NCBI GenBank assembly: GCA_964413365.1
Contig: CAYPRM010000003.1
Span: forward strand, 857-64,856
DNA: 64,000 nt
Direction of reading: 5' to 3'
From: an uncultured Lachnospiraceae bacterium
Lineage (GTDB): Bacteria > Bacillota > Clostridia > Oscillospirales > CAG-272
The stretch's first letter is position 1, and each line of letters begins with the position of its first letter. The notes under the pieces were generated by a model that did no database searches, had not been told where the DNA came from, and was given only the letters and a program-made list of their open reading frames with translations. The position numbers and the translations under genes are program-made. Below, piece by piece: positions 3,190 to 51,078 of the stretch.

Positions 3190-3888
3190 ATGAGGTATAA
3201 GATCGCGATCTGCGATGATTCCGATACGGACAGACGCTATGTTTTGAATATGGTCGAGAGCTGGGCTGAGTCTGCCGCGCACAATGTGGATGTGAACACC
3301 TTCCCCTCCGCCGAGAGTTTTCTCTTTCACTATGAGGAGGAGAGCGATTATGACATTCTGCTTCTCGACATCGAAATGGGAGAGATGGACGGCGTAACTA
3401 TGGCAAAGAGAATTCGACATGCCAACGACACCGTGCAGATCGTTTTCATCACGGGCTATTCAGACTACATTTCCGAGGGGTACGAGGTTGCGGCTCTCCA
3501 TTATCTTATGAAACCCGTCAAGGAAGAAAAGCTCCGATCGGTGCTTGACCGTGCGGCGGAAAAGCTTGCTAAAAACGAGAAGGTATTGAACTTTGAGATC
3601 GGTAGCGAGATGGTGCGTGTGCCGATTTATCAGATCCGTTACGCTGATGTTCTCGGCAACTACGTTACCGTTCACGCTCTCTCTGACGTTACTGCGAAAA
3701 TGACCTTGGGCGAGCTTGAAAAGCAGCTTGACGAGCGATTTTATCGCGTGGGGCGTTCCACGATCGTAAATCTTACGCAGATCAGCCGTGTAACAAAGAC
3801 AGAGATCAGGCTGAGCGACGGAGCAGTCATTCCCCTCCCACGGGGAGCGTATGACGGTGTGAACCGTGCGATAATAAATATGAGGTAG
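3190..3888 (+). CDS. LytTR/AlgR-family response regulator
   Basis: 232 aa. The receiver domain shows ICDDS...LLLDIEMGEMDG and the C-terminal part is a LytTR DNA-binding domain (FYRVGRSTIVNL). Confidence 0.9.
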   Translation: MRYKIAICDDSDTDRRYVLNMVESWAESAAHNVDVNTFPSAESFLFHYEEESDYDILLLDIEMGEMDGVTMAKRIRHANDTVQIVFITGYSDYISEGYEVAALHYLMKPVKEEKLRSVLDRAAEKLAKNEKVLNFEIGSEMVRVPIYQIRYADVLGNYVTVHALSDVTAKMTLGELEKQLDERFYRVGRSTIVNLTQISRVTKTEIRLSDGAVIPLPRGAYDGVNRAIINMR

Positions 3889-3893
3889 CAAAT

Positions 3894-4556
3894 ATGGGAT
3901 TGTTTTCTAAGAAAATAGACAAGCAGATCGCCTCCTATCAGCACGAGCTGATAGAAACGCATTACCGTGAGGTCGATAATATGTACCGTCAGATTCGCGG
4001 TTGGCGACACGACTACCGCAATCACATTCAGACGATGAAGGCTTATGCGGCTGTCGGCGACCTTGATGCCATTAAGAATTATCTCGACCTGCTCGATAAG
4101 GATCTGACCACCGTTGACACTGTTATCAAGACGGGCAATCCTATGACGGATGCCATTCTGAACTCCAAAATTTCAATTGCAAGATCAAAGGGTATTGATG
4201 TTGTGGCGGATGCGCATATTCCCGTCAAGCTAAAGACCTCGGAGATCGACCTGTGCTGTATAATCGGTAATCTCTTTGACAATGCCATTGAGGCGAGTGT
4301 CAAGCTACCCGAGGATCAGCGTGTGATCCGTGTGTATATGGATATGAAAAATACCCAGCTCTACATTTCCTTCACAAATCTTACTGCCGAGAAGAAAATG
4401 AGCAAGGTGGGCAATATATTCCGCACTACAAAGGGCGACGGGCACGGCTTTGGGCTTGTTCGCATAGATGCGATCGTGGAAAGGCTCGACGGATACATCA
4501 GTCGCAATAGCGAGGACGGGGCGTTCACAACTGAAATATTGCTTCCGCAGGTGTGA
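3894..4556 (+). CDS. AgrC/HPK10-type GHKL histidine kinase core lacking any transmembrane sensor region
   Basis: 220 aa. H-box WRHDYRNHIQT, N-box GNLFDNAIEAS, G-box KGDGHGFGL. I see no hydrophobic segment in the translation. The gene starts 5 nt after the regulator gene. Confidence 0.8.
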   Translation: MGLFSKKIDKQIASYQHELIETHYREVDNMYRQIRGWRHDYRNHIQTMKAYAAVGDLDAIKNYLDLLDKDLTTVDTVIKTGNPMTDAILNSKISIARSKGIDVVADAHIPVKLKTSEIDLCCIIGNLFDNAIEASVKLPEDQRVIRVYMDMKNTQLYISFTNLTAEKKMSKVGNIFRTTKGDGHGFGLVRIDAIVERLDGYISRNSEDGAFTTEILLPQV

Positions 4557-13220: not shown

Positions 13221-14438
13221 TTACGCCTTCGGGACGAGTCCACGGTCGGTGGCGAGATCAGCAATGATCTCAAATGCGCCCTCATAGCGGAACTTGGTCG
13301 CTATTCTGTAAAGGCAGGGCGTATCCTCGAAGCCGTGGCGCTTCGTGAGCGCGCAGGGGTAACGGGAATCGACGTATTTATGGGGATCGGTAGCGAGATA
13401 GAGCATAACTCTTGAATTACGTATATCCATTCTCGCGTAGACCTCGGAATTGATGTGGAACACGGCGCACTGCTCGGAGATCTTGCACTTCATACCCGTA
13501 TAACCGAGAAGCACCTTGGATATAGCGTCATATCTCGTGCGGAGCAAGCCGTTTGCATCACCGTATCTCTTGGAGAAATTGGTGTCATCGTTGTCGTAAT
13601 TCTCCCAATCGACCTCAAGCTCATCATTCTTGTGCTGTACGGTCTCGCTCATAGCCTGCTTTGTCGTGTCGGGCTTGAGATCGACCACGGGCTCGGCTTC
13701 TCCAAGCTTGGTAAGACCGAGACGAAGATCCACGGGATCATCCGCACTTATTCCGTAGTGCGTTATCCTCTGGCGGTCAAACTCGAACTCGTGCTTCGAC
13801 GCTACGAGCAGAAATTTATTCATAATATCCCTATTGGATTCAAATTCAAAATCATAGCTTGTAATAAGATTTCCCCCCGACGAAAGGATCATAGTGCAGA
13901 CCTTGCGTCTTATGTGGAAGAAAACATAGTTTTCCTTGTGATCAAGCGTCTCGCAGAGGTACATACCGAATGGCTTTACACTCGATATCTCCGTGCCGAG
14001 CAGCTTTGCGATCGCAAGGAAGGTATCCACTATCGCCTTGGGCATAAAGTACGTGTTGTAGGTATAGCCAACCTCACGCTTGTAGGAATTAAATTCCGTA
14101 TAGAAATTGTCGTTATCCTTGTTCTTCATCTCCTTTTTATAGAGATTGTTTGCGTAGAACGAGAATTTTGCCGGGATAGAAATGCTGTTTCTGTACACTC
14201 CCTCGCATCTGAGAAGGAGGACTATCGAGGGCATAAAGAGGATCCCGAGAGGCTCAAGCTCATGCTTGATCCTATCGGCGATGGGTTCAACCTTGATAAA
14301 CGCCCCATCCTTTGTCGGATAATCCTCAAGCTCTATCATTATTTCCTTAGCCTCGGCTTTTTTCTTCGACGGGAAGAATATACGCAGATATCCACCGTCA
14401 AAATTGCAATATTCAAAAATACATTGATTCTGAGCCAT
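13221..14438 (-). CDS. hypothetical pilus-operon protein (405 aa) occupying the slot usually held by PilM
   Basis: Intact ORF with no signal peptide or TM segment visible, tightly packed between pilin genes. I recognised no motif with confidence. Confidence 0.5.
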   Translation of the reverse strand: MAQNQCIFEYCNFDGGYLRIFFPSKKKAEAKEIMIELEDYPTKDGAFIKVEPIADRIKHELEPLGILFMPSIVLLLRCEGVYRNSISIPAKFSFYANNLYKKEMKNKDNDNFYTEFNSYKREVGYTYNTYFMPKAIVDTFLAIAKLLGTEISSVKPFGMYLCETLDHKENYVFFHIRRKVCTMILSSGGNLITSYDFEFESNRDIMNKFLLVASKHEFEFDRQRITHYGISADDPVDLRLGLTKLGEAEPVVDLKPDTTKQAMSETVQHKNDELEVDWENYDNDDTNFSKRYGDANGLLRTRYDAISKVLLGYTGMKCKISEQCAVFHINSEVYARMDIRNSRVMLYLATDPHKYVDSRYPCALTKRHGFEDTPCLYRIATKFRYEGAFEIIADLATDRGLVPKA

Positions 14439-14458: not shown

Positions 14459-14911
14459 CTATGGGGTGGTTGTTGTAGTTACGTACAGCCCCAAAATAAA
14501 ATCATAGATTGTGTTATTATCATATATTAATTCACAGCGAACAAATGTAACCTTGCGACCTGTTTCTTCGTTTGTTTCTGTTTTTTCATATATTCTAAAA
14601 CCATCCAAACCCGTGTCCTTGAACTCGGTATTACCTACGGTAAGAGTTTTTGTATTGCGAACAAAGTTCACATCAGTGGTATTGTCCTTGAATTTTTCAA
14701 TATAGGTTTTGTCATTTTTCTTGGAATCTAACAAGCTACGCAAAGCCATCTCTATCGACTGCGTTTGCGTGAGCTGCTCGGACTTGTCTATCAGGTTACC
14801 CGACGAAGTTCCTACGAACACGAACGCCGTGCCTATCATAGTCATAATGAGCGTGGTCAATGCGATAACGACCAGCACCTCTGTAAGCGTAAAGCCGCGT
14901 TTTTTTGACAT
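14459..14911 (-). CDS. minor pilin with prepilin-type N-terminal motif
   Basis: Leader MSKKRG|FTLTEVLVVIALTTL, with Gly at -1, Phe at +1 and Glu at +5. Confidence 0.85.
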   Translation of the reverse strand: MSKKRGFTLTEVLVVIALTTLIMTMIGTAFVFVGTSSGNLIDKSEQLTQTQSIEMALRSLLDSKKNDKTYIEKFKDNTTDVNFVRNTKTLTVGNTEFKDTGLDGFRIYEKTETNEETGRKVTFVRCELIYDNNTIYDFILGLYVTTTTTP

Positions 14912-15007
14912 AGGTCTGTCTCCTTTCTTTTGATTTTGGAGCTTGCATTAAAATGGCGAGGAGATGACGCTGTCATCACCTCGCCGTGATTTTACTTTGC
15001 TATGTAA

Positions 15008-15448
15008 TTATTTGTTGGAAAAGAATGTGTAAGTACCACCGTTCTTTGTGTTTGTATAAATGATCTTACCATCCTTAAGTTGGAATGCTCCAGCAGGGGT
15101 ATCAGATCCCAAAATAGCACTGTCAAGAGTGATTGAATCAACAGTCTTATTAGCGTCCGTAAGATCTATATAATCCGTACCAGACTTGGTTTTAATAACG
15201 ATACCATCAGTACCTTCAACAGCATAGTATTCAGTAGTGCCGTTGGCGAAAACTTTGCAGTAACCATTGAAAGAGATCTCATACTTGATCATCGACTCAT
15301 AGGGCTGAGCCTCCTGCATAGCAACAGAATTGTTAGCCTTGTCGATATAAGCTGTGTAACCAACTACGGATACGGTTGCGAGAATTGCAAGTATAGCAAT
15401 AACTACGAGCAATTCGACGAGCGTAAAGCCCTTTTGTGTGTGTTTCAT
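15008..15448 (-). CDS. pilA: major type IV pilin
   Basis: Leader MKHTQKG|FTLVELLVVIAILAILA. It is the first gene after a strong promoter. The track start at 15454 is a TTG, and the ATG at 15448 is preferred. Confidence 0.88.
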   Translation of the reverse strand: MKHTQKGFTLVELLVVIAILAILATVSVVGYTAYIDKANNSVAMQEAQPYESMIKYEISFNGYCKVFANGTTEYYAVEGTDGIVIKTKSGTDYIDLTDANKTVDSITLDSAILGSDTPAGAFQLKDGKIIYTNTKNGGTYTFFSNK

Positions 15449-15599
15449 TTTCAATTTTCTCCTTTTGAATAAAAAATTTATATAAGACCGTCGTTACGCA
15501 CCAACGGCATTATATCTATCACCCTTCCACGCTTACGCATCGCGAGGAATGGACACGGCAAACTCATTACGCATCTGAATTTCGCCGATTTACGAGGGT

Positions 15600-15628
15600 A
15601 TTATACCACTTTTACACACAAATGTCAA
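15600..15628 (-). promoter_or_regulatory. consensus sigma-70 promoter of the pilus operon
   Basis: On the minus strand: TTGACA (15628-15623), exactly 17 nt, then TATAAT (15605-15600). This predicts a leader of about 139 nt. Confidence 0.75.
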
Positions 15629-15926
15629 TAGTTTTTTCGCTTTTTATGCCCCAAGGGCGGTTTTGTGAGCGTCAAATGCCGAAAAAATAGCTCTTATATT
15701 ACATATTTTTACATACGCGATCCCACAAGCCCTCTTAAAGCCTTGATTTTTTCGGGGTTCGTTTTTTTGACCGATTTTTCGGACTTGATAAATTTTTTCA
15801 AATATTTTTGCAAAATACGCTCCATTTTGCGAAATTTTTGAGATTTTTTATATTTTTCTTCCCTCTCCCACCGCTATATCAAGACCTCGGGGCGGCCAAA
15901 ATATAGCCACCCCGTGATGTCAGGTC

Positions 15927-16334
15927 TTAAGTCTTTTTATCAAATTTTTCTCCGCACTTTACGCAGGTGAGGGTTATCTTACCCCTGCCCCGTGGCACTC
16001 TGAGCCACGTTTTGCACTTCGGGCAACGGTAAAATTTATGTGTTTTTCTCTGCTGCCATCTCGTCCTTGTCATTTTGACCGCTCCGAGATATCTCTTGTT
16101 CTCGTTCACTCTCTTATAGATGTTCTTTGAGAGTATTCTGAAAAAGGTATATACCATAAGTGCGGTGCATATACACCAGAAGACGAGCTTTACTATTCCG
16201 CTCGGGCAGAAGCCGTAGATAAGAAACGTTATTATATACGCTATGAATGAGAGCTTCGCGAGGTCGTCAAAGCCGTTTCTTCCGTAGAAGAAGCTGCGGA
16301 GCTTCCCCATCATGCGTGAGAAGAAATTACGCAT
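15927..16334 (-). CDS. membrane protein with C-terminal zinc-ribbon
   Basis: 135 aa with two TM helices, then CPKC...CVKC. It starts 19 nt downstream of the ABC gene and is probably co-transcribed. Confidence 0.6.
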   Translation of the reverse strand: MRNFFSRMMGKLRSFFYGRNGFDDLAKLSFIAYIITFLIYGFCPSGIVKLVFWCICTALMVYTFFRILSKNIYKRVNENKRYLGAVKMTRTRWQQRKTHKFYRCPKCKTWLRVPRGRGKITLTCVKCGEKFDKKT

Positions 16335-26515: not shown

Positions 26516-26551
26516 AACTCAATTGCAGTGCTTACGCACTGCAATTGAGTT
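26516..26551 (-). other. perfect 15-bp intercistronic hairpin just upstream of the yesL-like RBS
   Basis: Arms aactcaattgcagtg (26516-26530) / cactgcaattgagtt (26537-26551) with a 6-nt loop. No U-run follows on the minus-strand transcript. Confidence 0.5.
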
Positions 26552-50043: not shown

Positions 50044-51078
50044 TCATTCTGCCGTCTGCCACTTATTGTTCTTTACGGAATATCCGACGACTATCTCACT
50101 CTCGACGAGGGCACATTGCGGTGTCTTTATGTCATTAAGTTGATCGACGAGCATCTCCACCGCAGTTTTACCGAGCAAGGTATAATCCTGTCTTGCGTAG
50201 CTGAGGGGCGGATCGAACGTTCCGTTATCAAGTGCGCGTCCGAGCGAGAACACCGAGACGTCATATCCGATTCTAAGATCCTTTTCCGCCGAGATACTAT
50301 ATATCTGCTGTGCCACGATATCATCGCAGGTGATGAACACCGAGTCCTTATCTATTATCGAGCGTATATAAGCGTCATTATTTGGATCGACGAATATCCT
50401 GCGCGATATCACGCGGTCATTCATATTGATACCGTTCTCCATGCAGGCCTCGTAGAAGCCTCTGTATCTATCCTGAGAGATGGTCATCTCCCCTTCACTA
50501 TTTATAAGGTAGATATTTTTAAGTTTTGTAAGCTCGATCAGCTTGAGGGCGGTATTTTTAGTCAAGGTCATATTGTCGACGTCGACGTAATTGATCTTCT
50601 CTGCATTTTCAGGTCTGCCGAGCACGACAAAGTTGATATGCTGTGAGTCGATCTGGGAGATACGCTCATCGTGAAGACAGGGGCTCATCATTATCGCGCC
50701 GTCGATCGGTGCGCAACCCCTTCGGAGTGTATCAAGAAGCGTTTCCCTATCGGAGTTATAATAAATAAGTAAGGAATATCCGTGCATGGACGCCTCCTTT
50801 ACGCAGGAGACGATGAGATTTTTATATATCTTCTTATTGATATCGTCACTGCTCTCAAGAAGCAGGGCGAGTATATTTGATTTTTTACTTGAAAGCGTTG
50901 ATGCGTAAAAATTGGGATGGTAATCGAGCTCCTCGCAAGCGCGGAGCACCTTTTCTCTCAACTCGTCGCTCACGAACTTCTTGCCCGTAAGAACGTTTGA
51001 GACCGTTGACTTAGCGACGCCTGCGCGGGCTGCCACGTCAACGATATTCACAGCATCCTTCAATCTCGTATCCTTCAT
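50044..51078 (-). CDS. LacI-family transcriptional regulator
   Basis: 344 aa. The N-terminal HTH reads NIVDVAARAGVAKSTVSNVLTG, followed by a periplasmic-binding-protein-like sugar-binding domain. Confidence 0.9.
   Translation of the reverse strand: MKDTRLKDAVNIVDVAARAGVAKSTVSNVLTGKKFVSDELREKVLRACEELDYHPNFYASTLSSKKSNILALLLESSDDINKKIYKNLIVSCVKEASMHGYSLLIYYNSDRETLLDTLRRGCAPIDGAIMMSPCLHDERISQIDSQHINFVVLGRPENAEKINYVDVDNMTLTKNTALKLIELTKLKNIYLINSEGEMTISQDRYRGFYEACMENGINMNDRVISRRIFVDPNNDAYIRSIIDKDSVFITCDDIVAQQIYSISAEKDLRIGYDVSVFSLGRALDNGTFDPPLSYARQDYTLLGKTAVEMLVDQLNDIKTPQCALVESEIVVGYSVKNNKWQTAE

Follow-up and report, generated by a model that had tools for sequence, protein, structure and literature searches.

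Three hairpins sharing one invariant loop in the leader of a clostridial type IV pilin gene, probably a regulatory RNA

Elements in which the hairpins of a leader offer a regulator the same loop motif several times are already known. In the arrays recognized by CsrA/RsmA, several short 5'-UTR hairpins carry one identical loop motif on stems that are free to vary, and the multivalent binding of a small oligomeric protein controls both translation and stability. The targets of the ANTAR regulators (EutV, AmiR, NasR type) are tandem small leader hairpins with conserved loop positions, read by a dimeric RNA-binding regulator. They consist of two hexaloop hairpins, with A at position 1 and G at position 4, the second of which competes with a terminator. 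In the IRE arrays, such as the five IREs of the transferrin-receptor 3' UTR, an identical loop is placed on unrelated covarying stems at irregular spacing, each hairpin being an independent site for the same protein. Recognition of a hairpin-loop sequence by a protein that represses translation is also the principle of several phage operators (MS2 and PP7 coat protein, and T4 DNA polymerase, whose loop is 8 nt long), which are single hairpins containing or abutting the start site.

The leader described here precedes pilA, a major pilin gene of an uncultured member of the Clostridia, in a 64,000-nt stretch of DNA (the window, meaning the whole stretch that was analysed). Within about 145 nt of the minus strand, it contains three hairpins with the loops GAUGCGUAA, GAUGCGUAA and GUGCGUAA, which share the motif RUGCGUAA. 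The IRE arrays are its best architectural analogue, although the IREs, which are eukaryotic and bound by IRP, have a CAGUGN loop and a C bulge and show no sequence relationship to it. An analogy with CsrA was drawn in the initial annotation of this DNA; it holds for the architecture, but not for the loops, since GGA is missing from all three of them in each of the seven leader versions compared below. They are therefore not CsrA sites, and none of them overlaps the SD. Compared with the ANTAR targets, the pilA leader has three hairpins with loops of 9, 9 and 8 nt, which are not hexaloops and thus not ANTAR targets, and there is no overlapping terminator, no call having been made on the sense strand at the leader (14900-16000). 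Unlike the phage operators, the pilA leader carries three hairpins, which lie 50-130 nt upstream of the start codon, and it belongs to a cellular gene.

Leaders of clostridial major pilin mRNAs are already known as a level of control. A c-di-GMP-II riboswitch lies upstream of C. difficile pilA1. The type IV pilus genes of C. perfringens are reportedly under marked post-transcriptional control (PMC6958937), and processing by RNase Y was proposed to stabilise the pilA2 mRNA of this species (Obana et al. 2017, as cited in PMC6958937). The leader studied here belongs to the same kind of mRNA and would act at the same level, but it has no sequence similarity to the leaders of C. difficile pilA1 and C. 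perfringens pilA2, for which three identical loops have not been described. Searching the whole window with the Rfam 15 covariance models gave no match at the gathering thresholds, and none of the riboswitch families, including c-di-GMP-I/II, was matched. Two candidates below threshold, caiA (25.6 bits vs a threshold of 55.5) and cow-rumen-4 (21.2 bits vs 48.5), were not reproduced on the most distant version of the leader (L133). Operators of the thrS type, which mimic a tRNA anticodon arm, have a 7-nt consensus loop with the U33 equivalent directly 5' of the anticodon-like triplet. This candidate was also rejected: the pilA loops are 8-9 nt long, a G and not a U stands before CGU, and position 37 is U if the triplet is taken as GCG. 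Nothing relevant was found in the literature on the loop sequence or on RNA motifs of pilin leaders, and neither this motif nor its occurrence in triplicate, nor its link with a major pilin gene, seems to have been described before.

The locus is a complete type IV pilus operon headed by the major pilin gene. The pilA product (MKHTQKGFTLVELLVVIAILA...) bears the prepilin N-methylation motif, and the gene is followed on its 3' side by two more prepilin-like genes (minor pilins) and by genes for a 405-aa protein, an A24 prepilin peptidase, a T2SSF protein and a T2SSE ATPase. The pilA promoter (TTGACA at 15628-15623, TATAAT at 15605-15600, with a 17-nt spacer) matches the consensus at 12 of 12 positions, as had been noted initially, and is the sole such match found by a promoter scan of the region. 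All seven leader versions, including L133, keep both hexamers and the spacer length, with a promoter identity to the window of 79-97%. From the promoter position, transcription is predicted to start at about 15593. The 5' UTR, first estimated at about 139 nt, is more likely to be of about 145 nt, because the ATG at 15448 is a likelier start codon than the TTG at 15454, which is TTA in L004 and missing in L133. A second promoter at the TATAAT found in the base of hairpin 3 looks unlikely, since this hexamer reads TATAAG in L133 and has no -35 element. The A/U-rich SD tract does not vary among six versions, varies very little in L133, and shows no covariation; a weak AU hairpin around the SD is possible according to the RNAalifold prediction. 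The SD itself (AAGGAG) contains GGA, as most SDs do, and is sited in this tract, outside the three hairpins.

Table 1. Positions of the pilA leader elements and of neighbouring features in the window
Feature	Position	Strand	Description
pilA promoter	15600..15628	minus	sigma-70-type TTGACA-17-TATAAT, TG extended -10
Hairpin 1	15557..15586	minus	GGCG-AAAUUCA[GAUGCGUAA]UGAGUUU-GCC; loop 15567-15575
Hairpin 2	15525..15549	minus	UUCCUCGC[GAUGCGUAA]GCGUGGAA, one U-U mismatch; loop 15533-15541
Hairpin 3	15480..15515	minus	AUAUAA-U-GCCGUUG[GUGCGUAA]CGACGGU-C-UUAUAU; loop 15494-15501
SD tract	15449..15479	minus	A/U-rich, nearly invariant; GGAG at 15459-15462
pilA	15008..15448	minus	type IV major prepilin, 146 aa (MKHTQKGFTLVELLVVIAILA...); Pfam N_methyl E = 3.5e-10
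Intergenic hairpin	14955-14985	minus	13-bp hairpin GCGAGGUGAUGAC-N3-GUCAUCUCCUCGC between pilA and second pilin gene
405-aa operon protein	13221-14438	minus	no Pfam domain
Gene directly upstream	15927-16334	minus	135-aa predicted membrane protein, C-terminal CxxC...CxxC zinc ribbon (RCPKCKTWLRVPRGRGKITLTCVKCGEKF)
Regulatory pair	3190-4556	plus	LytTR-family response regulator + GHKL histidine kinase (Agr-like pair)

The MFE fold of the window leader consists of exactly the three motif hairpins (Table 1). The copies of TGCGTAA on the minus strand are located at 15573-15567, 15539-15533 and 15500-15494, thus 34 and 39 nt apart, which reproduces the positions and spacings of the initial annotation. 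The three hairpins that it described are also recovered, with one correction: hairpin 2 is better redrawn as in Table 1, its loop then being the same 9-mer as that of hairpin 1. The core of hairpin 1 (15560-15582) is extended by an outer GGCG/GCC stem, and that of hairpin 3 (15487-15508) by the AUAUAA/UUAUAU pairing. When the leader was shuffled 20,000 times with its dinucleotides preserved, some 7-mer was present three times in 96 of the shuffles, and in none of them did all three copies fall in loops on stems of at least 5 bp.

Syntenic loci were reached through homologues of the pilin and of the 405-aa operon protein. They provide seven distinct versions of the leader, spanning at least four lineages: those of the window (= L002), L001, L008, L004 (= L005, L006), L007, L003 (= L097) and L133. 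L001, L002, L004 and L008 belong to the species of the window (flanking genes with 93-100% nucleotide identity), L003 and L007 to other species (76-81%), and L133 is the most distant, with a 405-aa protein 69% identical. The promoter and all three hairpins are kept in all seven. Besides the genome of the window, the assemblies GCA_964581025.1 and GCA_965353095.1 carry the leader, and one MAG with it is labelled Lachnospiraceae; the NrdD encoded in the window has its nearest named relatives in 'Clostridia bacterium' MAGs. The same three hairpins are obtained by MFE folding of each leader, and RNAalifold on the full leaders independently agrees. Covariation was analysed on an ungapped alignment of the three hairpins (A4), comprising 31 base pairs and 217 pair cells. 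Standard pairs fill 93.5% of these cells; after a shift of the 3' partners by 1-3 columns, the figure falls to about 40-46%. In 500 column shuffles, not one of the five measures used was attained. Changes on both sides are seen in 13 of the 31 base pairs, among seven sequences from a narrow clade; since several of these versions share ancestry or recombination, the independent covariation events are fewer than the cell counts suggest.

The contrast between loops and stems is sharp. Over all pairs of versions, the loops are 99% identical vs 65% for the stem arms, and between the window and L133, 25 of 26 loop positions are alike but only 24 of 50 arm positions. Three of the seven inner pairs of hairpin 1 are changed on both sides, and its stem in L133 (GGUCAGUUC/GGAGUGACC) is unrelated in sequence. 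Hairpin 2 shows both-sided changes in 7 of 11 pairs, its stems being UUUUCCGU/GCGGAAAA in L003, UUUCCCGU/GCGGGAGG in L004 and GCUCUGU/GCAGGGU in L133. In hairpin 3, three of the seven inner pairs are changed on both sides, and the outer AU stem is without any variation. Covariation in relatives was the check that the initial annotation had itself put forward for its hairpins; the three stems do covary and the loops are invariant, so that the proposal has passed its own conservation test. The sole variable loop position is occupied by G or A (at the first loop base of hairpin 3, L133 has A and the six other versions have G). As a consequence, AUG or GUG is followed in every loop by CGU and AA.

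The covariation also tells which strand is folded. G-U cells are far more numerous than A-C cells (30 vs 3), and 93.5% of the cells are paired on the pilA-sense strand vs 81% on the antisense strand, so that the folded strand is the pilA-sense one. The distance between motifs varies across lineages, from 34 to 37 nt between the first and the second (34, 35 or 37) and from 36 to 42 nt between the second and the third (36, 37, 39 or 42). The identity to the window, given in turn for the upstream intergenic DNA, the promoter, the leader, the first 90 nt of pilA and the rest of the gene, is 0.61, 0.90, 0.88, 0.98 and 0.71 in L003, 0.55, 0.90, 0.85, 0.98 and 0.65 in L007, and 0.52, 0.79, 0.72, 0.87 and 0.60 in L133. 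In other species, the leader (72-88%) is thus conserved far above the neighbouring upstream intergenic DNA (52-61%), and within pilA the first 90 nt stand at 87-98% across lineages, the remainder at 60-71%.

The link between the leader and pilA is further delineated by three operon orthologues, L134, L135 and L137 (405-aa protein 56-61% identical), which keep the TTGACA-17-TATAAT promoter and the rest of the operon. At this locus, pilA and the three-hairpin leader are both missing in the three of them. The three hairpins and pilA have therefore been gained or lost together, as one module. In these pilA-less loci (L134 3420-3555, L135 3430-3565, L137 3470-3590), the consensus promoter feeds the second pilin gene.

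On these grounds, namely invariant loops, covarying stems, G-U pairs on the sense strand and variable spacing, we argue for an RNA element and not a DNA operator. A loop kept invariant three times over, on stems constrained only to pair, is the mark of a site present in several copies and recognised by a trans-acting factor. The leader is probably an undescribed regulatory RNA providing a triple docking site for a regulator. The reading that we prefer, with a probability of roughly one half, is that of a cis-regulatory leader of pilA whose loops would bind an oligomeric RNA-binding protein controlling translation or mRNA stability. The strong constitutive-type promoter would deliver a 5' UTR of about 145 nt, in which the nascent sense RNA is expected to fold into three independent hairpins, each displaying a single-stranded R-U-G-C-G-U-A-A loop. 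Each of these loops would be one copy of a single recognition site, read by a sequence-specific trans-acting factor. We infer that this factor exists and is most likely an oligomeric RNA-binding protein, which could gain avidity from three sites 34-42 nt apart. Flexible spacing is tolerable for sites displayed on RNA, but not for phased DNA sites. Occupancy of the sites would then set the amount of pilin, upwards or downwards, through the access of ribosomes to the A/U-rich SD region just past hairpin 3, or, by an alternative route, through an altered lifetime of the pilA mRNA. Since the loops look like the opening codons of an ORF (AUG/GUG, CGU, AA), the factor could normally be one that recognises initiation regions. 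The invariant loops could equally serve RNA-RNA pairing, RNase recognition or a tertiary fold.

Among the alternatives, the least unlikely one takes the hairpins as a passive or processing-linked stabiliser of the very abundant pilin mRNA, protecting it against decay from the 5' end or providing a processing site for RNase Y or RNase III, the loop sequence being kept for folding or RNase recognition. Hairpins at the 5' end are established mRNA stabilisers in Firmicutes, and the extended hairpin 1 begins about 8 nt from the predicted 5' end (15593). The RNase Y proposal for C. perfringens pilA2, as relayed in PMC6958937, is in line with such a role. However, pure stability needs stems, not an invariant 8-9-nt loop three times over, and here the loops are 99% conserved, with stems that drift. 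To our knowledge, RUGCGUAA does not belong to the known families of extra-stable loops either. We consider this explanation unlikely.

The loops could also pair with another RNA, either in trans, with an sRNA or a tRNA carrying UUACGCA(U), or in cis, through a kissing interaction with the UUACGC of the prepilin G-F-T-L motif. This hexamer encodes part of the G-F-T-L cleavage motif both at the start of pilA (F-T-L codons UUUACGCUC) and in the next pilin gene, and the GCGUAA of the loops is complementary to it at 15426 and at 14892, respectively, as is also the case in L003, L007 and L133. The composition of the loops, a start codon (AUG/GUG) followed by CGU and AA, fits with pairing as well, the variable R retaining a start-codon-like triplet. 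Nevertheless, this complementarity extends over only 6 nt and was spotted post hoc. UUACGC at G-F-T-L is explained by coding, since it is also found in leader-less loci (L135). There is no complementary non-coding sequence within the window, and the loops, at spacings of 34-42 nt, are without a consistent mutual reading frame. Pairing with another RNA seems thus quite unlikely.

Control at the level of transcription elongation may take two forms. Hairpin 3 and the U-rich tract could form a factor-dependent attenuator, or an antitermination factor could be loaded by the loops, as with nut/boxB or EAR, and so control how much transcription passes the conserved hairpin that lies between pilA and the assembly genes further downstream. 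Hairpin 3 is indeed GC-rich and followed by CUUAUAUAAAUUUUUU, and the invariant 13-bp intergenic hairpin splits pilA from the next gene; the ratio of pilin to machinery has to be fixed at some step. The initial annotation had taken hairpin 3 with its U-tract as an expression platform. The U-rich tract is real, but an intrinsic terminator needs a U-run 0-2 nt past the GC-rich stem; here, the stem ends at 15487 and the U6 run lies at about 15476. Because of this 10-nt displacement, the sense-strand scan does not report hairpin 3 as an intrinsic terminator, and the platform reading finds no support there. No alternative antiterminator pairing is present in the MFE or consensus folds, and this downstream hairpin operates in L134, L135 and L137 with no such leader ahead of it. 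Elongation control is, in our view, improbable.

A transcription factor bound as a roadblock to the DNA repeats was the other option of the initial annotation. Three direct repeats TGCGTAA/TTACGCA do lie within +20 to +100 of a strong promoter, and a LytTR response regulator with its kinase is encoded about 4-5 kb beyond the end of the operon. This operator (or iteron array) is nevertheless disfavoured to the point of being very improbable. The shared core is only 8-9 nt long, each copy being flanked by a different, covarying inverted repeat; in DNA, or in the antisense strand, the 30 G-U pairs would not match; and the spacing shifts by 3-6 bp between lineages. A true DNA-type repeat, that of L148 (see below), conserves its whole unit of about 22 bp including the flanks. 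Known LytTR sites consist of 9-bp repeats 12-13 bp apart, a layout that does not fit the arrangement of the leader. Finally, a leader peptide or upstream ORF started at a loop AUG/GUG and regulating pilA via translation is scarcely credible and was rejected: in the window, the AUG of hairpin 1 opens a 13-codon frame ending at the UAA of motif 2 and that of hairpin 2 stays in frame through motif 3 to a UAA, but no loop AUG is preceded by an SD, the spacings are mostly not multiples of three, and the frames are not conserved between versions, the first one stopping after 4 codons in L133.

The element has been seen only in a narrow clade of uncultured Clostridia, and only upstream of pilA. In the 64-kb window, a single-hairpin covariance model (R1) retrieved only the three leader hairpins, at 32.8 bits for hairpin 1, 30.8 for hairpin 2 and 13.8 for the remaining one, the next best hit scoring 11.8 bits; on about 75 kb of related DNA, it again retrieved leader hairpins only. 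The window and this related DNA thus give no hint of a regulon. The heptamer occurs 21 times in the window, vs 7.6 expected, but this excess is gone with a maximal-order Markov model based on its own 6-mers (18.4 expected), and the reading as an enriched word of the DUS/USS kind was discarded. The 18 copies outside the leader lie in coding sequence or in one terminator hairpin. Two stray TGCGTAA hairpins, at 50792-50811 and 26525-26542 (minus), score 11.3 and 9.1 bits, which is the background level. One of the two, CGUCUCC[UGCGUAA]AGGAGGCG, is inside a LacI-type regulator gene, and the other is a 16-bp, terminator-like hairpin with GUAA as its tetraloop; both are probably due to chance.

Wider scans gave a similar picture. 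Among the matches listed by a three-motif pattern scan of genome contigs, which were mostly 7-mer microsatellites, the sole true one was L003 (= L097). A metagenome scan anchored on the protein found no relative, and one with the leader pattern found three chance matches without hairpins. The leaders of the distant pilin loci L009-L012 are unrelated. One of them (L010 3860-3975) has two tandem units of about 50 nt, each bearing a hairpin GCCCC-CAAA-GGGGC. The viral-contig, phage and plasmid collections held no related sequence, their pattern matches being coding sequences or tandem repeats, plus one iteron array. The latter (L148 680-830, IMGVR_UViG_638275880_000009) contains four direct repeats AGATAGA(T/C)GCGTAATGGTCTAT in AT-rich non-coding DNA and looks iteron-like. 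Its repeats share the heptamer but are otherwise unrelated to the pilin leader, and they are conserved as whole units, flanks included.

In piliated bacteria, major pilin transcripts rank with the most abundant ones, and the post-transcriptional setting of pilin levels in Gram-positive anaerobes is poorly understood. More tentatively than the cis-regulatory reading itself, and at somewhat less than even odds, the RUGCGUAA loop can be proposed as the operator of an undescribed post-transcriptional regulator for major-pilin synthesis in these bacteria. If true, this would be a new pairing of an RNA motif with an RNA-binding protein, or with an RNA partner, read three times per mRNA, and a compact new case, in bacteria, of hairpin loops recognised multivalently in a way that falls under neither the CsrA nor the ANTAR paradigm. 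The invariant loops on covarying stems offer a tractable handle: the loop is usable as bait for the regulator, and loop and stem mutants of the leader come with clear predictions. What limits the value of the element is that its distribution is narrow, with four lineages of uncultured Clostridia seen to carry it, and that no host is in culture.

Several minor features of the pilus locus deserve mention. The core of the intergenic hairpin is identical in 14 of 14 pilus loci (L001, L002-L008, L097, L133-L137), and in the pilA-less ones the promoter runs directly into this hairpin. Its 5' arm is strongly SD-like (GAGGUGAU) and is paired to an anti-SD-like arm. This hairpin may be a partial terminator, an attenuator or a stabiliser, setting the ratio of pilin to assembly machinery.

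The gene directly upstream of the leader codes for a membrane protein whose zinc ribbon recalls the small RNA-binding zinc ribbons of the Com type; its ORF happens to begin with ATGCGTAAT. This gene also adjoins the operon in leader-less loci, so that no link to the leader emerges. No linked recombinase or RNA-binding gene was found near the pilus locus. The LytTR/GHKL pair is listed in Table 1.

The 405-aa operon protein has homologues down to 42% identity. Proteins of a distinct group, about 248 aa long, match only about 60% of its length, which suggests that the remainder is an extra domain in this clade. Within the species (window, L001, L002, L004 and L008, compared over 14459-15448), the major pilins are only 57-74% identical as proteins. 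Of the three strains compared, two have a second pilin that is only 65-66% identical, and in the third, L002, it is 94% identical. The leader of L004 is of a divergent, L007-like type (83% identity), and the DNA just upstream of it is 96% identical. These observations suggest that the leader-pilA-pilin2 cassette is exchanged by recombination within the species.
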